From IMG/VR virus record IMGVR_UViG_3300027708_002528: a stretch of 20,000 nt of DNA; one strand, written 5' to 3'. The position numbers and the translations under genes were made by a program. Within the stretch, counting starts at the first letter, position 1, and each line of letters starts with the position of its first letter. Shown here piece after piece: positions 151-12,097 of this stretch. Below the pieces are notes generated by a model that saw only the letters and a list, made by a program, of their open reading frames with translations, searched no databases and had not been told where the DNA came from. The DNA comes from an uncultured virus (IMG/VR IMGVR_UViG_3300027708_002528). Lineage: Duplodnaviria; Heunggongvirae; Uroviricota; Caudoviricetes.

Positions 151-1035
151 TTATTCGTCCTCGGCTAGAGCCTTGAAGTAATCCATATCATCTTCGTCTT
201 CAGTATCTACCCTACTTTCGGTATATTCTTTGGGACTTGATGCTTCTTTGAACTTAGCCTGTTCCACTGTAGTACGTGGAGCCGATCCGTTTAGACCGAG
301 AACTTTATCCAACTTAGCCTTGAGTTCGTCATATGACTTGAAGTTGGATGGAAGTAGAAACTCTTTGAGAGAATATTCTTTCTTCCAAAGCTGTTCAAGC
401 TTACCGTCATCACCATTGAAAATAGCCGAAGGTGAATCAAACTCAGACTTATCGTAATTCTGATAACCCTCAACTTTACGAATCTTGAGCTTGAAGTTAG
501 CACCAGACCAGAAGTCAAATGGATTGATCGCCTTTTCATCCTCGAATTGAGGATTCATTGCCTCGGTGATTTTATCGAAGATTTTCTTTCCATAACGAAA
601 CAGAAAAACCTTTCCCTCATTCTCAGGATTTTTTGAATCCTCAATCACGAGAATGTTAGAGATGTACTTGAGGCGACGTTTCTGCTCGCGAGCAATACCC
701 TTGTTCGCTTCGATTCCAGAATTCCATAGCAAAGAATTATATTCCGAAACAGGATCCTTTTGATTCAGTGTAGTGAGAGAATTCTCAATATACCAGCCAC
801 CAGGACCTTTGAAACCATGATCAAAGATTTTGACCCAAGGAAGAGCATCCTCACCATCTGCCGCAGGTGAAGGAAGGAATCGAATAACAGCATAGCCATT
901 GCCAGCCTTATCGATCTCGGGCTTCCAGAAATTGTCATCTTTGGATTGTCCACCCTCAGAACTGAGGGCTTCTACGGCTTTCGCGAGTTTATCGAGATTG
1001 CCAGAATTACGTTTTAGATTTGCAAATGAACTCAT
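151..1035 (-). CDS. gp32: T4 gp32-like single-stranded DNA-binding protein
   Basis: Motifs FWKP..DKAGNGYAVIRFLP, HGFKGPGGWYIENSLTT, GKVFLFRYGKKIFDKI, GANFKLKIRKVEGYQNYDKSEF; acidic tail DDMDYFKALAEDE; SD AAGGAA. Confidence 0.97.
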   Translation of the reverse strand: MSSFANLKRNSGNLDKLAKAVEALSSEGGQSKDDNFWKPEIDKAGNGYAVIRFLPSPAADGEDALPWVKIFDHGFKGPGGWYIENSLTTLNQKDPVSEYNSLLWNSGIEANKGIAREQKRRLKYISNILVIEDSKNPENEGKVFLFRYGKKIFDKITEAMNPQFEDEKAINPFDFWSGANFKLKIRKVEGYQNYDKSEFDSPSAIFNGDDGKLEQLWKKEYSLKEFLLPSNFKSYDELKAKLDKVLGLNGSAPRTTVEQAKFKEASSPKEYTESRVDTEDEDDMDYFKALAEDE

Positions 1036-1737: not shown

Positions 1738-2283
1738 TTATTCTTTGGGGTGACCCATCATGGTTTTGGTATGCATATGACCTCCAATGGATCTATCGTA
1801 ACTCTCGCCGTCTTTGTGGGGAATTACATGCTTATTGAGTAGTTTTCCAGCTTTATTTGCCGGAATAACCGGTACTCCCATCTTGGTTTGCAGATGTTTT
1901 GCCGCCCCAGATACTTCTCCCCATGCACGTTTTTGCTCATGATCTTCTAATTTTGTCTTTTTCCAGTCCGCTTTACCCTGCTCAGTTCCATCAGTTCCGG
2001 AAGCAATAGACTTCCTTCCATGTTGTTTCTTATAAAGATTAACTGAACTGATCTTACCATTTCGTTTAGTTGCCTTTATAACTGAATGGGTAATATCATG
2101 ATGAATAGCATCAGACTCTTCTTTAGATCCTGATTTATGTCCGGAATAACCACCTATACCTGAATATGATTTATGAAGAATATCATGTATTTCTTCTCGA
2201 TGTTTTTCTCTATGGGATTCTTGATCTGGATGCAGACCTATCGATATAACACGTTCAATGATAAAATCTTTAAACTTTTCCAT
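1738..2283 (-). CDS. Hypothetical His/Lys-rich protein with a T4 capsid-targeting-like N-terminus (candidate internal head protein)
   Basis: 181 aa ORF, SD GAGG, N-terminus MEKFKDFIIE, exact late promoter upstream. Function not recognised. Confidence 0.75.
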   Translation of the reverse strand: MEKFKDFIIERVISIGLHPDQESHREKHREEIHDILHKSYSGIGGYSGHKSGSKEESDAIHHDITHSVIKATKRNGKISSVNLYKKQHGRKSIASGTDGTEQGKADWKKTKLEDHEQKRAWGEVSGAAKHLQTKMGVPVIPANKAGKLLNKHVIPHKDGESYDRSIGGHMHTKTMMGHPKE

Positions 2284-2309: not shown

Positions 2310-2317
2310 TATTTATA
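2310..2317 (-). promoter_or_regulatory. T4-type late promoter
   Basis: Exact TATAAATA directly after the upstream stop codon and 26 nt before the ATG at 2283; gp33 is encoded in the window. Confidence 0.85.
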
Positions 2318-2818
2318 TTAATCAGTACCGATGCTGTGTTTGTTCAATTGATTCAATGTTTTAGATAGTGTGGTGTGTAGAATACCAACACCTCCAGCAT
2401 CATTCCATTGATCAATATTTGATTTTGTATCGTCAATTAGAATTGCATCTGGTTTTGCGTACTTCCATTTGAATCGTTTTCCCGGAACATAATTTCTGCG
2501 ATAGTATACATGATGAGTATCACACCAGATATTTTTCTGTCTGGAGATTTCATCATACTTATCTTCGGTGGCAGTAGACGATAGAATCTCAATAGAAACA
2601 TTTTTATAGGTCTTCATCTTGGCGAGAAGTCCTTGTGCACCGGGCATCCAATCTAGAGTCGCGAATTGTTGAGTGCCAATGAACTCATCAAAATACTTTT
2701 GAAATACTTTACTCTTTTCAGCCTCAGATGGATGCATGTTATAAAGTTCTTGGTATCTCCGAACGAAGTCACAGAGAACTCCATCTAAATCCAAATAGAT
2801 AGTATTAATTTTTGACAT
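2318..2818 (-). CDS. HAD-family 5'(3')-deoxyribonucleotidase-like protein (NT5C type)
   Basis: Motif I YLDLDGVLCDF, motif II ILSS, conserved Lys, motif IV LIDD, then W..AGG.GILH. Confidence 0.85.
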   Translation of the reverse strand: MSKINTIYLDLDGVLCDFVRRYQELYNMHPSEAEKSKVFQKYFDEFIGTQQFATLDWMPGAQGLLAKMKTYKNVSIEILSSTATEDKYDEISRQKNIWCDTHHVYYRRNYVPGKRFKWKYAKPDAILIDDTKSNIDQWNDAGGVGILHTTLSKTLNQLNKHSIGTD

Positions 2819-3413
2819 TTTCTTTCGCCTTATTTTTTAAGGTTTCTTTAAACTTGGTTTTGTCATAAAGGCTTTGCATAAAGGGAGAATACTTTTTGAT
2901 ACGTTTTGCTTGTGTAGGAAAGATGACATCATCTGATATTTTTTTCTCCCATACTGGAAGAAAATTCAATAAGTCATTTAGAATAACAACAGTCTCTAAC
3001 CTTATCTCATGAAAATTTAATAGTTCAAGTAATACAGGGTATTCTCCTGCATCACCTGGCTTGAACACATTAGATTCTGAATCAAATATCTTATCAAGGT
3101 CTTGATTAAATATATAGCTCAGAGACTGTGTTATTTTTTTCCAACTCGCAAAGCAATCATCCGCAACATCTCCGCTTAAGTCTCCTATCCACAGATTAGA
3201 ATTCCTGATTAAATTTGAAATCAAAAATCCAATCAACTCATCATTCGAATATCGTCTAGATAGTTTATAGAAACTGAATTTATTCTTATGCGTCCTGAAA
3301 CTATCCTGACTAATGAAATTTGTCTTACCGTTATATTTAAAGTAATCGTATGAATCTGAATTGAAATGTAGCTTCAATGCAGTGAACAACTTATACGTTT
3401 CGTAACCATCCAT
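2805..3413 (-). CDS. gp59: T4 gp59-like helicase loader
   Basis: Y..F.ALKLHF....YDYFKYNGK, F..LSRRY, ETVVIL..LLNF, IKKYSPF; synteny with gp33 and gp32. Confidence 0.92.
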   Translation of the reverse strand: MDGYETYKLFTALKLHFNSDSYDYFKYNGKTNFISQDSFRTHKNKFSFYKLSRRYSNDELIGFLISNLIRNSNLWIGDLSGDVADDCFASWKKITQSLSYIFNQDLDKIFDSESNVFKPGDAGEYPVLLELLNFHEIRLETVVILNDLLNFLPVWEKKISDDVIFPTQAKRIKKYSPFMQSLYDKTKFKETLKNKAKENVKN

Positions 3414-3414
3414 A

Positions 3415-3639
3415 TTATATAGGCAATTTAGGTTGCTTTTTGAGCATGTTTAGTTCTTGAGCCTCCTCAGATATCTTTGCCTTGAGAGGGGCGGTGATCA
3501 GAGTAGCAGCAACTTCGACCTCTAATCCAGTAATCTCACAATGATGCAGGATGGCTTCCATGTATCCGATGCGTTTCTCTTTTGAGAGTTTTTCAATCAG
3601 AATAGAAAATGTTCTAATCTCATCTTTATTCGCCATCAA
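3415..3639 (-). CDS. gp33: T4 gp33-like late-promoter transcription co-activator
   Basis: FS..IE......IGYMEAI..C....LEVE....LI..PLKAKI..EA..LNML.....LPI; directly upstream of gp59. Confidence 0.92.
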   Translation of the reverse strand: MMANKDEIRTFSILIEKLSKEKRIGYMEAILHHCEITGLEVEVAATLITAPLKAKISEEAQELNMLKKQPKLPI

Positions 3640-3817
3640 AGATTCTCCAGTAAATACTTCCTATGAAAACATATAGCTCTCCCACATCTTCATCGCTTAG
3701 AAACATCGAAGATTGACTATAGGGAAGAATCCCTGGAGGAACTTCAGTCCGATCATCATCTTTTCTCATAGTGAGCATCCATTCATCGCCATGCTTTCTG
3801 ATACTGAATTTATCCAT
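3626..3817 (-). CDS. Small hypothetical protein
   Basis: Fills the gap between the hydrolase and gp33 with short overlaps at both ends; start re-assigned to ATG 3817 (MDKFSIRK), which overlaps the end of the upstream gene. Confidence 0.6.
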   Translation of the reverse strand: MDKFSIRKHGDEWMLTMRKDDDRTEVPPGILPYSQSSMFLSDEDVGELYVFIGSIYWRIFDGE

Positions 3818-4334
3818 TCGTTTTTTCTTTGTAAAAGATATGCCTACCAATTTTTGTAATTCGTTTCAGATCCCATCCTGGAGACACATAGTCTGCATGA
3901 TAGTAGAGAGCGCGATTAGCATATAGCATATCATGCGCAACGGGCTCAGTCAATGCTTTTTTAGCGATAAGTTGAGACTCTTCCCATAGATACTTGTCCT
4001 TTTTAGGAAGATTGGTTAGACAATACCATGAGAATTGGCAAACAATGTATCCGTTCGAGGATGTCTTCTGTTTGACCACGCGACAAATGTCTGATGGAAA
4101 TTTACCACTAGACGACCTATTGAGTGTCACTTGAGCCACCGCAAGCTTTCCTTCATAAGGTTCTGTTGCTGCTTCATAGTAAATATTTTCTGCGAGACAA
4201 TGTACCTGCTCCTTAAATATAGGAGCTTGAGTTTTGATTACATATTCATTGGGTCGATATAGAAGACTTCCGATGAAAATCATCGAGCTTACCAAAGCCA
4301 ATAGTATGATAGAGGAGTTTTTAGATCCCTGCAT
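3810..4334 (-). CDS. Cell wall hydrolase, SleB/Hydrolase_2 family, with N-terminal signal anchor
   Basis: CLAENIYYEA..EP..GK.AVAQV.LNR....FP..IC.VV.Q, CQFSW, ALYYHADYVSP.W, IGRHIFY. Start placed at 4334 (SD AAAGGTG) because the longer start overlaps the tmRNA 3' end. Confidence 0.92.
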   Translation of the reverse strand: MQGSKNSSIILLALVSSMIFIGSLLYRPNEYVIKTQAPIFKEQVHCLAENIYYEAATEPYEGKLAVAQVTLNRSSSGKFPSDICRVVKQKTSSNGYIVCQFSWYCLTNLPKKDKYLWEESQLIAKKALTEPVAHDMLYANRALYYHADYVSPGWDLKRITKIGRHIFYKEKTNG

Positions 4335-4371
4335 TATTGCACCTTTTTGATCAAATTTGAATAATGAAAGA

Positions 4372-4682
4372 GCCAACTGATTGGGTGATAAGGACAGTTG
4401 GCGAAACCCCAGAATCAGTTACGCTGCGAGAGCGAAAACCTCATCGTTAGACGCTTTATTTGCGTTTACTTTTTTTGCTTGATTTACGGTCATCGCCTAC
4501 CGTGTTGCCGTCTCCACTAGCTCACCTTGTCGAAACCGGTCGGACCCATCAAAAGCACACATAAAACTAAGATTTTGCATAGCTGCCTTAGTCACTTGCT
4601 ATCAGTGTGTGTGCTTTTGGTGGATCCGGGGGGAATCGAACCCCCGTCCAAGATGCCTTCATTTTGAAGGGATTACAACAAT
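4372..4682 (-). ncRNA. ssrA: Circularly permuted (two-piece) tmRNA gene
   Basis: Acceptor piece comes first: GGAC-GGGGG-TTCGATT-CCCCC-CGGATCC-A-CCA (4649-4618). A 70-nt intervening segment follows (4617-4548), then the coding piece starting GGGTCCG at 4547, which pairs with CGGATCC and gives G3:U70. D-loop-like GGTTTCGAC; tag frame 4463-4419 = ANKASNDEVFALAA*. Outer ends are approximate. Confidence 0.95.
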
Positions 4683-4687
4683 ACTTT

Positions 4688-4695
4688 TATTTATA
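4688..4695 (-). promoter_or_regulatory. T4-type late promoter driving the tmRNA
   Basis: Exact TATAAATA 4 nt after the upstream stop codon and just before the acceptor piece. Confidence 0.85.
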
Positions 4696-4699
4696 CCAG

Positions 4700-5284
4700 T
4701 TAGTCAATACCAACCATTTCCACTTCACTTCGATTCAACATTCCTCCGATAGGTGTATAAAACTTGAATTCGATATAATCCACATCTTCTTTCTTGAACT
4801 CAAACCCTCGATTCTTACGCAGAACTGAGTGAAATTGCGTCATCGTAGTTGGATGAAACCTACCTACTGTTTCGGTATTACCTTTACCTGGATAACCACC
4901 TTCTTTGGTTCCTATCAGATGAGCTTCTGTGTCATCATGTGCTTTGTGAAGAACTGAATCTTGTCCATACTTTTCTCCGTGCTTCTTGAGAAAGCCTTTG
5001 AGCTTACCGCCATCATCACCTTTAGATCCTACGATTAGATAGGAATGTTCATCGACAGCAGTTGCGTCTGGTGTTCCATGATTTTCAATGTATCGACCTT
5101 TGACATGAACAAAACCAAATCCATGTGATCTGATATCCGCCTCAAGCTTCTTATTTCGGCGAGCATTCTCAGTACTATCATACTCACCTCGATGAGCGGT
5201 GATAGCACCGATATTGCGATCTTTTGTGTGCTGGAGAACTCTTCCTACACTGGATTCATTAAGGATAGTTTTTAGTGTCTTCAT
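4700..5284 (-). CDS. S-adenosylmethionine lyase (T3 SAMase-like) protein
   Basis: Ordered motifs ITAHR...EN.RR..L...IR, KGRYIE, VDEHS, YGQDSVL, EAHLI parallel T3 SAMase VSAFR...VNMSR...LR, TGCYRE, TEEKT, WEQDCVL, TAGLV (reference recalled from memory). Confidence 0.7.
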   Translation of the reverse strand: MKTLKTILNESSVGRVLQHTKDRNIGAITAHRGEYDSTENARRNKKLEADIRSHGFGFVHVKGRYIENHGTPDATAVDEHSYLIVGSKGDDGGKLKGFLKKHGEKYGQDSVLHKAHDDTEAHLIGTKEGGYPGKGNTETVGRFHPTTMTQFHSVLRKNRGFEFKKEDVDYIEFKFYTPIGGMLNRSEVEMVGID

Positions 5285-5320
5285 GTTGGATGAATTGGAT
5301 TAGAAGTGACTAGTATACAC

Positions 5321-5328
5321 TAGTTATA
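5321..5328 (-). promoter_or_regulatory. Probable late promoter variant
   Basis: TATAACTA (one mismatch to TATAAATA) in the intergenic gap, 36 nt before the ATG at 5284. Confidence 0.55.
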
Positions 5329-5346
5329 CGAAATAAACAGGTAATA

Positions 5347-6012
5347 TTAAATATTTTTTCTCTTATATTTGGATATTATCCTAACTAAAGTTTCAATATG
5401 ATCCTCAGTTTTCTCTATGAATACTAAAGGCGCATCATTCTCAACAGCCATTATGATAACTAATTGATCTACAGGAATTCTTGTTAATTCTTCAGACATT
5501 AAAGCATATGCACAAGTCTGTGCAAAATAATCAGCGATATCATCCTTATTTTTAACTCTAGATGATGTTTTGAAATCGATAACGGAAAGCTTACCCTCAT
5601 ATTCTGCGATAGCGTCAACTCGACCTGCCAATTCTAGGTCCTCTGACCATAGAGATTGTTCCATATAGTGGATGTTATTAATTTTATCGACATATGGCTT
5701 TATCGATATAAACATCTCCATCGCATCAGGCATGAAGCTTTCCTGTCTTAGGTTACGCCCTAACATGTACTTTTCGCATATCGTATGGATATTAGTTCCT
5801 CGGGAACTTGCTTTTTTCGATATGCGATTTGCCTCCGCTTCTCCTACACGAGCGCGCCACTCCATGATTGCGGCTTTCTTCATTGAACCCACGACGGTTG
5901 TGACTGAAGGAACTTTTTTACCTGAAGGTAGAGTGTAGAATCTCTTTCCGTCAGATTGTGTTTCTGAGGTCAGATTTGGTAATGTGCGAGGAGGACAAAA
6001 ATTAAACGTCAT
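5347..6012 (-). CDS. PD-(D/E)XK exonuclease (T4-like phage exonuclease, Cas4/RecB-like)
   Basis: PSVTTV, WR.RVG..EA.RIS..A..RGT..H, E..L.S..L..AGRVDAI, IDFKTS, Q..AYA. Confidence 0.9.
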   Translation of the reverse strand: MTFNFCPPRTLPNLTSETQSDGKRFYTLPSGKKVPSVTTVVGSMKKAAIMEWRARVGEAEANRISKKASSRGTNIHTICEKYMLGRNLRQESFMPDAMEMFISIKPYVDKINNIHYMEQSLWSEDLELAGRVDAIAEYEGKLSVIDFKTSSRVKNKDDIADYFAQTCAYALMSEELTRIPVDQLVIIMAVENDAPLVFIEKTEDHIETLVRIISKYKRKNI

Positions 6013-6061
6013 AATTTAGTTTAACCAACCGCATCATAAATGCGAGAAGTATCTCCATTTT

Positions 6062-6331
6062 TCATTCAGCTTTGCGGGCTTCAACTTCCATTGGGTTATT
6101 TTCATAACCATAGCGAAGTTGAAAGGAAAGATATTTAATGTAAAACATTACTACGCCAATATCTTGCGCTTGCTTCCAATGAACCGTTTCATGGTTGTAA
6201 ATATTTTTGTCGTTTATATGATCAGGTCTAATAAAAATGCCGAACGGGGGTAGGGTAATAGCGTGATGACCTACAAACTTTAAATACCACTTAACCGGGC
6301 CTTTGGCTTCAAAGAATTTAGGCTCGCTCAT
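6062..6331 (-). CDS. Small HEXXH zinc-metallopeptidase-like protein
   Basis: AITLPPFGIFI, HETVH..Q and a distal Glu in NNPMEVEA; ATG directly follows the upstream TAA. Confidence 0.7.
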   Translation of the reverse strand: MSEPKFFEAKGPVKWYLKFVGHHAITLPPFGIFIRPDHINDKNIYNHETVHWKQAQDIGVVMFYIKYLSFQLRYGYENNPMEVEARKAE

Positions 6332-7348
6332 TTATACTACCGCTCCGTATACACGGGTTAGATCGTTTGATACAAAAGCCAAAGACGCGCCATTTAGAGA
6401 AACGGCTTTACCTCCTGCCGCGCCAGCGTAGTCATTAGAATACCCACCGGAAGCCCCCCATCCTCCGCCACCTGCTCCAGCATAGATAGTAGAACTGCCT
6501 CCCGGTGAATTTGCGCTACCTCCCGGAGATCCATAGACATAATCCCCGTCAGACGGGACAACAACAGATCCCCCTCCTCCGCCAGCACCTGCCGCCGTAC
6601 CGGGATTATTACCTTGCTGGTAGCCCGAGCCACCCACTCCCGGAAAAATGCGACCTCCTCCTCCGCCGCCGTTCTTGCCGTAGCGATAAAGTCCAACACC
6701 GCCGTAATCTCCAATTAAACCTCCAGCCCCTCCATCTGTAAGATAGGCGCCTGATTGTCCTCCCGCTCCTCCTCCTGCTCCGCCACCCCCTCCTACATCA
6801 TTTATTGAGGCGGCCGGACTACCCGCGCCCCCGCCACCACCTCCGGCAATCCACGCAGAACCATAAGTATTATCAATTGTAAATACAGCGGCGCTATTAA
6901 GCTGTATGGCATCGGTGCCCGCAGTGGGAGGGGTATATGTTCCCGGTAACCAACTACCTCCGTTACCGCCGGTACCGGCAATGACCCCAAGATTAATAAT
7001 TTTTACTGTGTCACCATAATTGTTGTTTACAATTCGCAAACCATTAGCCAGCCAAACACCGTAGTTTACAGTAATAGTTAAATCAGTTCTCCCGGCTGAA
7101 TAACCAGACAAACTTGAAACATAAACCGTAACGGTAGAATAGGTAGAAGAACTATAAGTCAGACTTAACGCCACACGATTACTTTTACCGTACAGATTAC
7201 TCATTGAGATAGTAGATTGGGGAGTTGGAACGCCAGCAAGACTACGAACCGCAGAATCATTCATATTAATATTCTGTGTCGAAGGTCTTCCTAATTCGGA
7301 ATTGACCTGCGATAAACTTATAGGGTTGCCTGGTTGAACGAGAGCCAT
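6332..7348 (-). CDS. Glycine-rich tail-fibre adhesin, T2/T6/S16 gp38-like
   Basis: IINLGVIAGTGGNGG, WIAGGGGGGAG, multiple polyglycine runs separated by variable loops, GGGGGWGASGG, GAAGGKAV, terminal VYGAVV; N-terminal ISLS.VN.ELG...ISMSNLYGKS attachment-like segment; SD AAGGA. Confidence 0.8.
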   Translation of the reverse strand: MALVQPGNPISLSQVNSELGRPSTQNINMNDSAVRSLAGVPTPQSTISMSNLYGKSNRVALSLTYSSSTYSTVTVYVSSLSGYSAGRTDLTITVNYGVWLANGLRIVNNNYGDTVKIINLGVIAGTGGNGGSWLPGTYTPPTAGTDAIQLNSAAVFTIDNTYGSAWIAGGGGGGAGSPAASINDVGGGGGAGGGAGGQSGAYLTDGGAGGLIGDYGGVGLYRYGKNGGGGGGRIFPGVGGSGYQQGNNPGTAAGAGGGGGSVVVPSDGDYVYGSPGGSANSPGGSSTIYAGAGGGGWGASGGYSNDYAGAAGGKAVSLNGASLAFVSNDLTRVYGAVV

Positions 7349-7370
7349 CTATTACAGTCCTTTTATCTCT

Positions 7371-8114
7371 TTAGTTACTATCGTCATAATGTATTTTAGC
7401 CAGAATATAATCTTTCACCAAGCTACTTCTAACAATGTCATCGGCAGTGAATTCAATCTTTGTGAATGCATTCATAGATTGGCAAATGTCAAAGAATTTT
7501 AGAATTCCTGACATATCATTCTTTCTTTTATTTAGGTCTGTTTGACGATAATCTCCACACCAAATAATTTTTGAACGATATCCTACCCGGGTCATGACAG
7601 TATCAATTTCTTCAAAGGTAAGGTTCTGCATTTCGTCAACGATGATGATCGCATCATCAAAACTCATACCTCTAATGAAACTTGTAGAGATGAATTCGAT
7701 ATATCCCTGTTCAGTCAATCTTTGATATGAATCTTTCCTTCCGAAAAGAGTCTCGCAAATCTGTACGTATGGCTGTTGATAGATTTCCATCTTTTCATTT
7801 ACGTCACCTGGCAGGTGACCCATCTCGCGAGATTGAACCGCAGATCGAACCATGATTATTTTTTTAAATGGATTTCCCTTGTCCAGAACTTCTTCCAGTG
7901 CTTTGTACATTGCACAGAATGTTTTTCCTGTTCCTGCCACACCATGCAGTGCTACGAAATAGTCGCCTCTGCGATATCCATCAAAGAATAGTTTTTGATT
8001 ATTTGTTAATGGGTCAAAAGTTTTTAAATGATCTATGGTTATTTTTAGTGTGTTTGGGGAAGGTTTCACATGTTCAACATGAGTATCTACGTCATTCTTT
8101 CTTCTAGTCGCCAT
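7371..8114 (-). CDS. phoH: PhoH-family ATPase
   Basis: Walker A GVAGTGKT, RSAV..REMGHLPG, FIRGMSF, IIVDEMQN, CGDYRQTDL, DIVRS.LVK.YI. Start re-assigned to ATG 8114 (SD AGAGGA). Confidence 0.95.
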   Translation of the reverse strand: MATRRKNDVDTHVEHVKPSPNTLKITIDHLKTFDPLTNNQKLFFDGYRRGDYFVALHGVAGTGKTFCAMYKALEEVLDKGNPFKKIIMVRSAVQSREMGHLPGDVNEKMEIYQQPYVQICETLFGRKDSYQRLTEQGYIEFISTSFIRGMSFDDAIIIVDEMQNLTFEEIDTVMTRVGYRSKIIWCGDYRQTDLNKRKNDMSGILKFFDICQSMNAFTKIEFTADDIVRSSLVKDYILAKIHYDDSN

Positions 8115-8137
8115 GCATCCTCTCTTATTGCGGTAAG

Positions 8138-8419
8138 TTACCATTCTCGGGGTAGTTTAGTTTTATGAGTCCTTCGAAGATTATTACGTGGAACTTTTTC
8201 TATCATACGTTGAATAACACCTTTCTCAAAGGCTGAATCCGCCTTGCCGATTCCAGGCGTGTTCATTCGCATCGAATCTCCAAAACCAGGAAAGTCTTCG
8301 ATGGAATGATATCGTTCTAAGTGAGCGTTTTTTTGCTTGAATTCATCTAGTTCAGTGGACCTAAACTTATGCTCTTCAATTTCATTGGTCAAAGTGTTTC
8401 TAAACGTATACGTCGGCAT
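8138..8419 (-). CDS. Conserved T4-like phage hypothetical protein (FmdB-like MPTY.F N-terminus, no Cys)
   Basis: MPTYTFRN..T.E..E N-terminus; position upstream of phoH is typical for this phage group; SD GGA. Confidence 0.75.
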   Translation of the reverse strand: MPTYTFRNTLTNEIEEHKFRSTELDEFKQKNAHLERYHSIEDFPGFGDSMRMNTPGIGKADSAFEKGVIQRMIEKVPRNNLRRTHKTKLPREW

Positions 8420-8993
8420 TTTTCATTTCCATTTCATAAAACCAATCAGGAACTTCTCTACTATTTATCTTACCTTTCCATGAAGACAGATGCTGTTTGT
8501 TCATGAAATAATAATTTCGATATGATTGAATAGAGTTCCCTTTGACTTTGCAATCATCTGGCATCGCAGGTGTTGGCTCAGTGAATGAATTATTCGATAT
8601 ATTGTTAGGAACATTCGAAAGAAGCGTCTCCACAAGTTTTGAGCTTTCACACTTATGCACTTTACCATATCTATATGTATATTCAGCACATAGCTCGACG
8701 TTTAGTCTTGCAAGCCAAAGATAGTTTGCTTTAGACTTGCGACACCACACGGCAGATGGATGATTGTTATGCGTTGCGGAATACAGAGTACTCTCGCGCC
8801 AATCAGACAATAGCCACTTTTTAACTTTGCGACCAGTGGCTGAAGTAACAATAGATTCACTGCCATCTAGTAATCGATGTGCGGTTGAAAGGAGTTGGCA
8901 TGTCTCCAGAATCATTTTGACTACATGCCTATCCACATGGTACTTTGCACACAAATTTGTATTGCTATCAAGATAGAATATATTCAAGGTCAA
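8400..8993 (-). CDS. Pyrimidine-dimer DNA glycosylase/endonuclease V-like family protein
   Basis: NIFYLD....CA..H.D.HVVKMILE..QLLSTAH, TH.NHPS.VW.R.S..NY.WL, EYTYRYGKVH, PTPAMPD, YRNYY. TTG start at 8993 or 8987. Confidence 0.7.
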   Translation of the reverse strand: MTLNIFYLDSNTNLCAKYHVDRHVVKMILETCQLLSTAHRLLDGSESIVTSATGRKVKKWLLSDWRESTLYSATHNNHPSAVWCRKSKANYLWLARLNVELCAEYTYRYGKVHKCESSKLVETLLSNVPNNISNNSFTEPTPAMPDDCKVKGNSIQSYRNYYFMNKQHLSSWKGKINSREVPDWFYEMEMKNADVYV

Positions 8994-10330
8994 TCTTTCT
9001 TATATTTCATTCCTACCGCGAATCCAAAGTTTTGAAGTTTGGGAAGGTCTTTTTCAAGCTTTTCACCAATATCGTCGCGGTATTGTGCGTTATTGGGCAA
9101 CTCAATTTTCTTCATTATAGCATATGCTTTGTCTGCTGCGCCCTTTACAGTATCATCTACACCGGTAGTTTGTAGCACATATGTTCCGGCAGTAACCCAA
9201 TCCGGTACGTCAATAATCTGACCGTCGATGAATTTGGTAACTTCACCAAGCTTAACTTCGCATGGATGAATGTTCCTATAGTCCGCATATGCTTTATCGG
9301 TATAAACGGGGAATCCAACCTCTTCTTCAGGAGGTCTGAGGTTTAGTGGATATGATCCATGAGCAAGAACAACACCGACGCAAACTTTATTTTCTATGAC
9401 TTTCTGTGTATCCTGCCCCCTTAGAAGATCATAGATCCACTGTGCTGGATCACCCTCATGCAATGGCTGTTGAATATTCCAACATGGCCATCCGCAACGT
9501 GCAGTAAATTCTAGAGGATATGGCGTACCATCTTCTTCATCGATGATGCAGTTGACATCAACGAATCCGGTGTAGTTGATTGAATGTAAGTAATCTTCAA
9601 CTGGTCGAAGAACTGCGTCGGCTAGTTTAGACTCTTGAACGTAACGCATAACAGTACCTTGCTCACCGGTATTTACACCGAGATCACTTGGCATATGCTT
9701 CTTGAATTCCCAACCTTCTAAGAAATACTTATTGAAACCCTTGGGTCCGAAATGACCAGCAACAGCCATTTCTAGACCGGGTTTAAATTTCTGTAGAATG
9801 AATTCCTGCTTGCTTCCGTTTTCTTTCCATTTTTTCAGCATGAAGATCATATCTCCTGCTGATTTTGACACATAGGAAAGAGATTTATCTGTTTCGGTAC
9901 CGCAAGGTTTAGACACCCATCGACCAGGATTTTCTCTGATGTAGTCAATACCAGCATCGAAATCTTTAAATGGACCTTCATATTCCATTGTTTTGATTCC
10001 AGCTTTTTTGAAGATGTCTTGACCTAGGTTACGGTCTAGTTCACATTTTGCAGTCAGATCATCACCGCCCCACACCAAATATCCATTCTTACGATACTTC
10101 CTAATTTCAGGAAGAAAGTCCATAATGTTATCGGTGAGGAAAACGAAATCACACCAGTCCATCCACTTACGCCAGTCTTTTACTTTAGATACTAGTCCGT
10201 CGCCGATGTCAGCTACATGGCCCTTATCGTCCTTGTCGATAAACCACTTAACCGTATGTCCTGCGGTAATAAAACGTAAACATGTATCTAGACCTAGGCC
10301 GCAATAGCCGTCGATAACCAGTATGTTCAT
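8990..10330 (-). CDS. purD: PurD (phosphoribosylamine-glycine ligase)-like ATP-grasp protein, divergent
   Basis: ELDR..G...FK.AGI, WVSKP, FILQKF.PG.E, E.KK....DLGVNTGEQGT, YTGFVDVNCI, PLEFTARCGWP, C-terminal YRDDIG. Lacks the N-terminal GSGGREH motif. Confidence 0.75.
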   Translation of the reverse strand: MNILVIDGYCGLGLDTCLRFITAGHTVKWFIDKDDKGHVADIGDGLVSKVKDWRKWMDWCDFVFLTDNIMDFLPEIRKYRKNGYLVWGGDDLTAKCELDRNLGQDIFKKAGIKTMEYEGPFKDFDAGIDYIRENPGRWVSKPCGTETDKSLSYVSKSAGDMIFMLKKWKENGSKQEFILQKFKPGLEMAVAGHFGPKGFNKYFLEGWEFKKHMPSDLGVNTGEQGTVMRYVQESKLADAVLRPVEDYLHSINYTGFVDVNCIIDEEDGTPYPLEFTARCGWPCWNIQQPLHEGDPAQWIYDLLRGQDTQKVIENKVCVGVVLAHGSYPLNLRPPEEEVGFPVYTDKAYADYRNIHPCEVKLGEVTKFIDGQIIDVPDWVTAGTYVLQTTGVDDTVKGAADKAYAIMKKIELPNNAQYRDDIGEKLEKDLPKLQNFGFAVGMKYKKD

Positions 10331-11263: not shown

Positions 11264-11514
11264 AGGAATGAGTAGATATATTGGCGAGCCTGAGATAGAG
11301 ATGAGTATTTTTTACCGTTGATGAAAATGCTTTTTGGAGAGTAAACAAAAATCTGTCCGATCGATGTCATGATACGATATCTAGTAGCACCTTTACTATC
11401 CGTTTCTTTGAACTTAAAGACATCATCACGGATGAGATCGGCAAATAAAAGAGTCTCGCAAAATTCATCAGTTGCGACTTTTCGATAGTATGCAACGTTC
11501 ATGATGAATCTCAA
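11260..11514 (-). CDS. Hypothetical protein
   Basis: Operon-packed ORF; true start may be the ATG at 11502. Confidence 0.7.
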   Translation of the reverse strand: MRFIMNVAYYRKVATDEFCETLLFADLIRDDVFKFKETDSKGATRYRIMTSIGQIFVYSPKSIFINGKKYSSLSQARQYIYSFL

Positions 11515-12035
11515 AAAGAAGGGTTATCTGACGAAGGACGTTCAGGATCGTTAAACTTGTTTAGAGGAGGATATGGAGTTTTCACTGGACGATTACGATC
11601 AGGTTGGAAATAATGCTCTGAATATTTCTCTCGCAATTCAGGATCGCTGAGCCAGCTATCCGGAATGTTTTTCAAGTCCAGATTTTCACGTACAGACTGT
11701 TCCCGCTCACGTAAATGCTGTTCCCACGTTTGCTCAGGCTGCGAACGCTCGGGGTCTTTTAATCGGTTGGATTGAAGTTCATGGAGATAAGAAAATCCTT
11801 CACGCATTTTTTTACCTTCATCGAATTCAGTCACCAATGATTCAAAAATACGGAAAAGCTGACCGAATTTCAACTCATAAAGAGTTGCAACTCCTGAGAC
11901 GATGTTGTATACTGAATCAGGATCGCATGCGCTGCGTCCCTCAATAATTGACTCAGAAATTACTTTTAGGTCAGAAACGACATTCCAGCACTGCATGATC
12001 TGATCTTCGAGATCGAATCGATCAAAGACTTTCAT
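11511..12035 (-). CDS. Hypothetical early protein
   Basis: First gene after the sigma70 promoter; N-terminal DRFDLE.QI..CW.V..DL...LYELKF..LF..FE pattern familiar from large phages, plus a low-complexity C-terminal extension. Confidence 0.75.
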   Translation of the reverse strand: MKVFDRFDLEDQIMQCWNVVSDLKVISESIIEGRSACDPDSVYNIVSGVATLYELKFGQLFRIFESLVTEFDEGKKMREGFSYLHELQSNRLKDPERSQPEQTWEQHLREREQSVRENLDLKNIPDSWLSDPELREKYSEHYFQPDRNRPVKTPYPPLNKFNDPERPSSDNPSF

Positions 12036-12068: not shown

Positions 12069-12097
12069 ATTCTACTCTCAGATCATGTAAGTGTCAA
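12069..12097 (-). promoter_or_regulatory. sigma70 (early) promoter
   Basis: TTGACA (12097-12092), 17 bp spacer, TAGAAT (12074-12069), intergenic. Confidence 0.85.

Follow-up and report, generated by a model that had tools for sequence, protein, structure and literature searches.

Within the window, by which the whole stretch of 20,000 nucleotides analysed here is meant, the open reading frame (ORF) 4700..5284 on the minus strand was found to encode a member of the S-adenosylmethionine (SAM) lyase family whose first ten residues resemble the capsid-targeting leaders of T4 internal proteins. The protein was filed as a SAM lyase on the basis of profile, fold and ligand-binding residues taken together; it is very probably an enzyme of the T3/Svi3-3 type, with catalysis predicted from its sequence and structural model. 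The enzyme probably enters the cell together with the injected DNA, where it would blunt host defences, and we lean slightly towards the complete reading, in which a SAM lyase would be loaded into the phage head, cleaved there and ejected.

The window was identified as a piece of a T4-like phage in which every gene lies on the minus strand. Its gp32 showed 56-60% identity to gp32 of T4-like cyanophages and of Pelagibacter phage HTVC008M, and freshwater metagenomes gave the best DNA matches to the window. The SAM lyase ORF was surrounded by replication genes (exonuclease, gp33, gp59 and gp32), and the neighbouring features were as follows:

151-1035, minus strand, gp32 SSB
minus strand, 5'-nucleotidase, listed between gp32 and the gp59 helicase loader
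2805-3413, minus strand, gp59 helicase loader
3415-3639, minus strand, gp33 late-transcription factor
3810-4376, minus strand, SleB-type cell-wall hydrolase
5347-6012, minus strand, exonuclease, the gene upstream of the SAM lyase ORF
7371-8144, minus strand, PhoH
8400-8993, minus strand, DsbA-like DNA-binding protein

The homologue gene adjoined gp59 and gp32 in three of five representative loci (L014, L028 and L032), and in L014 and L028 a DsbA-like protein and an exonuclease gene were also close by, as in the window. The homologue loci L034 and L024 had different neighbours.

The SAM lyase ORF and its parts were mapped on the minus strand, with residue roles assigned by alignment to T3 and Svi3-3 (PMC7877911, as far as its available text goes):

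4700..5284, minus strand, predicted SAM lyase precursor of 194 aa (P0001), ATG start, PF23780
5255..5284, minus strand, capsid-targeting-like leader, residues 1-10 (MKTLKTILNE)
4835..5206, minus strand, catalytic core, residues 27-150, PII-like ferredoxin fold
5084..5098, minus strand, G63-R-Y65-I-E67 (putative ribose-packing Gly and sulfonium-contacting Tyr), aligned to T3 G-C-Y-R-E
5048..5053, minus strand, D78-E79, with E79 the putative key substrate-orienting glutamate, aligned to T3 E67-E68
4958..4963, minus strand, Q108-D109, putative contacts to the homoserine moiety, aligned to the T3 Q-D pair
4703..4834, minus strand, C-terminal tail, residues 151-194, conserved in the family and modelled with low confidence

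The profile PF23780 (S-adenosylmethionine lyase family) matched residues 27-150 at E 2.2e-12 with a score of 47.5 bits, above its cut-off of 28, which places the protein motifs beyond chance, and PHROG 26015 (587 positions) matched the protein at profile positions 420-552. Homologues were collected in 98 clusters (90% identity, E <= 0.001), most of them 180-195 aa long and most aligned over no less than 80% of the query, and nearly all carried PF23780. In the family alignment of 37 sequences, G63, E79 and Q108 were invariant, while Y65, E67 and D109 were conserved in at least 90%. According to the available text of Guo et al. (PMC7877911), Gly56, Glu69 and Gln104 are the sole strictly conserved residues of Svi3-3, Tyr58 and Glu105 enclose the ligand, and T3 E68 is the counterpart of Glu69. 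Gly56, Tyr58, Glu69, Gln104 and Glu105 of Svi3-3 (6ZM9, 6ZNB) all have counterparts in the ORF, namely G63, Y65, E79, Q108 and D109. A homotrimer whose active sites lie between the subunits is characteristic of the family (T3 SAMase, Svi3-3).

Searching the PDB with the sequence of this one protein gave no match, so a fold search was needed. The AlphaFold2 model, built on the 37 family sequences, was confident for residues 21-148, with pLDDT below 50 for residues 1-11 and 149-194. In the Foldseek search against the PDB, ranks 1-7 were occupied by Svi3-3 (6zm9, 6znb) and the T3 SAM lyase (8bb1_E, 7ock), the best match being Svi3-3 with E 2.5e-4, and the model superposed on the solved SAM lyases as a PII-like ferredoxin alpha-beta sandwich. 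An hhalign comparison with T3 gp0.3 (from the T3 record) aligned the GxYxE, DE and QD elements with a probability of 12.6%, a low value since the template consisted of one sequence only. An initial annotation made from the letters alone had called the ORF a SAM lyase-like enzyme and had proposed the AlphaFold and Foldseek comparison with Svi3-3 and T3 SAMase. Our results bore out that assignment, and the five motifs in their order (ITAHR, ENARR, GRYIE, DEHS and GQDSVL), the N-terminus MKTLKTILNE and the absence of a clear sigma70 promoter from the gap upstream were all found as it had described them.

In the leader, L4 and I7 occupy the targeting positions and L8-N9-E10 forms the predicted prohead-protease site, so that S11 would be the mature N-terminus. 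The form of this leader was conserved throughout the family. A leader ending in hydrophobic-x-Glu stood directly before (S/A)(S/A)LSRV in 95 of 99 family proteins, and the residue two before the Glu (P3) was L in 54 and I in 19 (73 of the 95). The leaders were 3-29 residues long with a mode of 10 (37 sequences). Among these ten-residue leaders, position 4 was F, L, Y or I in 36 and position 7 was I, F, L, Y or V in 35, while position 8 (L, I, F, V or Y) and the E at position 10 fitted in 37 of 37; E10 was likewise invariant in the 37 sequences of the family alignment. Where leaders were longer, the additional residues fell between the MxxFKxF part and the cut site, and from this placement a two-part tag fits better than a fixed structural helix. 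In the structural alignment, residue 14 of the model aligned to T3 residue 3; on this ground, and with the low pLDDT of residues 1-11, the leader is an addition by comparison with T3 SAMase.

The leaders of T4 IPI, IPII and IPIII (and of Alt) end in (L/I)-x-E and are removed by gp21, as stated in the available text of PMC3012670 and PMC9026906, and their form is similar to that of the ORF leader. The available part of PMC9026906 adds that packaging of IPIII requires no more than its first 10 residues, with targeting mainly by residues 4 and 7 and processing by residues 8 and 10. In the T4 record, ipII and ipIII begin with MKTYQEFIAE and ipI with MKTFKEF; homologues of the ORF begin with MKTYKEFVQE (L034), MKTYKEFIQDIQE (P-TIM68, from the third ATG) and MKTFSEFLGE (PANV1). 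For IPIII, a change of Glu10 to Asp is reported to prevent processing and leave loading intact. Positions 4 and 7 are L and I in the ORF leader, whereas they are aromatic in T4, which counts against the reading as a head-targeted protein. A loose leader pattern matched only 2 ORFs in the window. When the fetched loci were included, it matched 30 of 1052 ORFs (>=50 aa): 28 copies of the SAM lyase (one from the window, 27 from fetched loci), the protein P0100 and 1 other ORF. Apart from the homologues, only P0100 and one further match were thus found among the 1052 ORFs, which is beyond chance. A search of the four related contigs G002-G005 with a DNA pattern for N-terminal MKT[YF]xEF hit the SAM lyase gene of G002 alone and revealed no further cargo.

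The second ORF of the window with the leader pattern was considered as a second candidate head cargo:

1738..2283, minus strand, P0100, 181 aa, GNAT-like fold, leader MEKFKDFIIE
2310-2317, minus strand, exact TATAAATA, 26 nt upstream of P0100

P0100 gave no Pfam match and no PHROG match. Its model had a mean pLDDT of 82 and was confident except for residues 1-9, and every top Foldseek match was a GNAT acetyltransferase (E about 1e-4, probability 1.00). Relatives of P0100 with a readable N-terminus were counted in viral contigs; the leader form M-x-x-F-(K/I)-x-(F/Y)-(L/I)-x-(E/S) was present in all 21, several of which had a second hydrophobic-x-E five to six residues further on, and an ATAAATA core was located within 60 nt upstream in 20 of the 21. 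P0100 is thereby a candidate head-loaded acetyltransferase, as judged from its leader and model. The same kind of leader on two unrelated enzymes is the pattern described for the T4 internal proteins, which are presented in the available text of PMC3012670 as diverse defence proteins with the targeting sequence as their only common feature.

The genomes of relatives were searched for the prohead protease, the window covering part of its own genome, so that the result concerns the relatives. A gp21-type protease (Peptidase_S77, PF03420) was detected in all three complete isolate genomes with a leader-bearing homologue (S-CREM2, P-TIM68 and PANV1), in the T4 control, and in the 145-kb, 83%-complete contig G002, which holds L034. 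No PF03420 match was obtained in T3. The same search of nine fragmentary contigs (9-52% complete) gave no match, a result uninformative on absence; the nearest record, the 14.9-kb fragment G001, had no protease match.

A virion precedent was provided by gp6 of the Synechococcus phage S-CREM2, a T4-like phage with a gp21-type protease, where the protein is named 'SAM hydrolase (virion protein)'. S-CREM2 gp6 matched PF23780 at E 2.3e-19 and shared 38% identity with the ORF over 141 residues (E 9e-14), and the L-x-E-S-S junctions of the two coincide in the alignment. It differed from the ORF in its length of 414 aa, in a 20-residue leader with two L-x-E sites, in a long basic C-terminal extension and in an exact TATAAATA 22 nt upstream. 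In the available text of PMC10665884, gp6 was reported in CsCl-purified virions with 19 peptides and 26% coverage; its authors proposed that the protein enters the cell and protects the DNA, and cautioned that co-purification with virions may occur for abundant proteins. The notion of a SAM-degrading enzyme carried in the virion is thus not entirely new, one having already been reported and discussed in that paper. Its supplement held no peptide-level data able to reveal a processed N-terminus, and the PANV1 paper held no virion proteome. Among papers that mention both SAM lyases and virions, the openings of the abstracts named no virion-borne enzyme beyond that of S-CREM2, and no publication connecting SAM lyases to the T4 targeting leader was found; subscription journals lay outside both searches. 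With the family-wide (L/I)-x-E, the GNAT-like ORF with the same leader, the gp21-type proteases and a homologue in virions, the capsid-targeting-like leader that the initial annotation had recognised is supported more strongly than sequence alone could show its reader.

The expression of the ORF was considered from the region upstream:

5285..5346, minus strand, intergenic gap of 62 nt upstream of the SAM lyase ORF, with a 6-bp ACTAGT hairpin
5321-5328, minus strand, TATAACTA, 36 nt upstream of the SAM lyase ATG

A scan that found strong sigma-70-like sites elsewhere in the window found none in the gap 5285-5346, and the gap had no Shine-Dalgarno sequence. The initial annotation had taken TATAACTA for a late promoter. 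The sequence was present where described but is not beyond chance: one-mismatch matches to TATAAATA numbered 43 across the window, this one included, where 39.1 were expected. It also lacks the intact ATAAATA core seen in genuine late motifs of relatives. It was rejected as a late promoter on these two grounds. The exact TATAAATA occurred only twice in the window, neither time upstream of the SAM lyase ORF. A lake metatranscriptome contig from X4, identical to the window, covered 5009-5511 and ran from the SAM lyase gene over the gap into the exonuclease gene upstream, which fits read-through transcription and lends no support to a late promoter for this copy, though it is no proof of transcription or of its timing; a second contig, from X8, covered 4975-5226, part of the SAM lyase gene. 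The two contigs came from two runs and are silent on transcript start, strand, level and timing; DNA may also be present in RNA libraries.

Canonical late motifs were present ahead of homologues from other phages. ATAAATA was located within 60 nt upstream in three of eight homologue clusters (85% identity, viral contigs), and a fourth had it if the second ATG is the start; in the controls, the core preceded 5 of 113 other ORFs and occurred in 17 of 3488 random stretches of 60 nt. In T4 itself, none of the three ip genes had ATAAATA within 70 nt upstream, and the absence of a nearby late motif is thus weak evidence against loading.

The leader, the virion precedent and the expression data bear on an alternative that we hold to be rather doubtful, namely an ordinary cytoplasmic SAM lyase like T3 gp0.3, expressed by read-through from early or middle promoters, in which the N-terminus would be a structural or regulatory helix. 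The missing canonical late promoter upstream of this copy, the position of the gene amid replication genes and the RNA-library contig bridging the gap into the exonuclease gene are all in line with it. So is the AlphaFold2 model, which draws residues 4-20 as one helix; the conserved N-terminal helix could be structural instead, and so could the conservation of the glutamate. The promoter argument is weakened by the T4 ip genes, which also have no ATAAATA close upstream. A structural helix is further at odds with a leader that varies from 3 to 29 residues and yet keeps the hydrophobic-x-E junction in 95 of 99 proteins, with T3 SAMase, which has no counterpart of the leader, and with the same leader form in the unrelated GNAT-like family, while a cytoplasmic location is at odds with the detection of S-CREM2 gp6 in virions. 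On balance, head loading, cleavage after E10 and ejection are favoured.

Two further alternatives concern the activity itself. In the first, which is improbable, the protein would be a lyase with the same fold but with a SAM derivative as its substrate; were this SAM-AMP, a signal of CorA-associated type III CRISPR, it would be an anti-CRISPR like the candidate AcrIIIB4. According to the available text of PMC12255297, the PII-like fold and the key glutamate are also found in SAM-AMP lyases, and one phage enzyme cleaves SAM-AMP and not SAM; 9gab_A was among the Foldseek matches of our model, at rank 36 with a weak E of 0.14. A non-catalytic PII-like binder, which would sequester SAM or inhibit MetK, the SAM synthetase of the host, without turnover, is very improbable in view of the strong conservation of all ligand-binding and catalysis-linked residues, even if T3 SAMase also inhibits MetK via heteropolymers (available text of PMC8406200) and the conserved C-terminal tail (residues 151-194) has no assigned role.

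In the mechanism proposed for this SAM lyase, the protein would be made as a precursor with the 10-residue capsid-targeting leader. During head assembly the leader, through its hydrophobic residues 4 and 7, would bind the scaffolding core of the prohead; the gp21-type prohead protease would then cut after L8-N9-E10, and the mature enzyme from S11 would stay in the head. Upon infection the enzyme would be ejected with the DNA and would convert SAM to 5'-methylthioadenosine and homoserine lactone, so that the SAM pool would fall before any phage gene is read, and the lowered SAM would weaken SAM-dependent defences such as Type I/III restriction-modification and BREX. The turnover of Svi3-3 is 9.5 per second. 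By a rough estimate, a hundred injected copies at this rate could use up on the order of a thousand SAM molecules per second, a fast drain when set against the SAM pool that a small cell contains.

Among the counter-defences of T3-like phages, SAM lyases are known to be expressed earliest, and T3 SAMase is the first protein expressed after infection (available text of PMC8406200). The T3 gp0.3 SAMase (7OCK, 8BB1) has no N-terminal leader, in contrast to the ORF, with which it shares a sequence identity of about 13-14% in structural alignment, and T3 is without the gp21-type protease. If the proposed mechanism is true, an enzyme arriving with the DNA would act even earlier, in the first seconds and with no need of transcription. 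Such timing is important in the face of Type I/III restriction and BREX, systems that attack DNA as soon as it enters. The result would be a pre-emptive, enzyme-based counter-defence different from that of T3 in timing and delivery. The head cargo of T4 consists of diverse defence-related proteins ejected with the DNA (available text of PMC3012670 and PMC9026906); there the cargo is a small basic inhibitor or an ADP-ribosyltransferase, whereas here it would be a predicted SAM-degrading enzyme.

The family, with its 98 clusters, is widespread in marine and freshwater T4-like phages, and the mechanism would thus bear on phage-host dynamics in natural waters. That aquatic T4-like phages load whole enzymes by means of a portable leader of about 10 residues with a hydrophobic-x-Glu cut site, here at least a GNAT-type acetyltransferase and a SAM lyase, the latter acting catalytically before transcription to starve SAM-dependent defences, is in our judgement an even call. 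If they do, a common leader on unrelated enzymes would be a simple sequence rule to find injected cargo in uncultured phages, and the leader may also be of use as a natural tag that directs proteins into phage heads.

Some members of the SAM lyase family are longer (281-414 aa; P0102, P0071, P0082, P0088, and L039 at 2950-4194). They were seen to keep the N-terminal leader and to add lysine-rich C-terminal extensions where the ORF 4700..5284 has its tail; these extensions recall the basic nature of the T4 internal proteins. The search for longer fused forms gave one 345-aa protein with a C-terminal extension, and no N-terminally fused form was among its results, although the match of the ORF to PHROG 26015 covers positions 420-552 of the 587 in that profile.

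Two near-perfect sigma-70 promoters, both likely early, were located on the minus strand of the window. One (TTGACA-17-TATAAT with TG, 1680-1708) lies upstream of the alpha/beta-hydrolase-like ORF 1130-1657 (UPF0227) and the other (TTGACA-17-TAGAAT, 12069-12097) upstream of the ORF 11511-12035. The latter ORF, on the minus strand, begins with the leader-like MKVFDRFDLE; in this ORF the hydrophobic residue stands one, not two, before the Glu, it lies behind a sigma-70 promoter, and it was not counted among the cargo.

The stretch 6007-7372 was swapped for 807 other letters in a related phage from another metagenome (run X3) and is a variable cassette:

inside 6007-7372, minus strand, an 89-aa ORF and the glycine-rich tail-fibre-like ORF 6332-7348

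The ORF 8990-10330 (minus strand, 446 aa) carries PurD-like (phosphoribosylglycinamide synthetase) ATP-grasp and C domains and is a possible auxiliary purine-synthesis gene, as judged from these domains. The SAM lyase gene is followed directly downstream, at 4328-4731 on the minus strand (core 4419-4680), by a two-piece (permuted) tmRNA that is encoded by the phage and is of betaproteobacterial type. Its score was 138.6 bits with RF04321 and 134.7 bits with RF01850, and the tag read by ARAGORN was ANKASNDEVFALAA. The other exact TATAAATA of the window (4688-4695) ends 7 nt ahead of the start of the tmRNA model, which suggests that the tmRNA is transcribed late, and the type of the tmRNA hints at a betaproteobacterial host.
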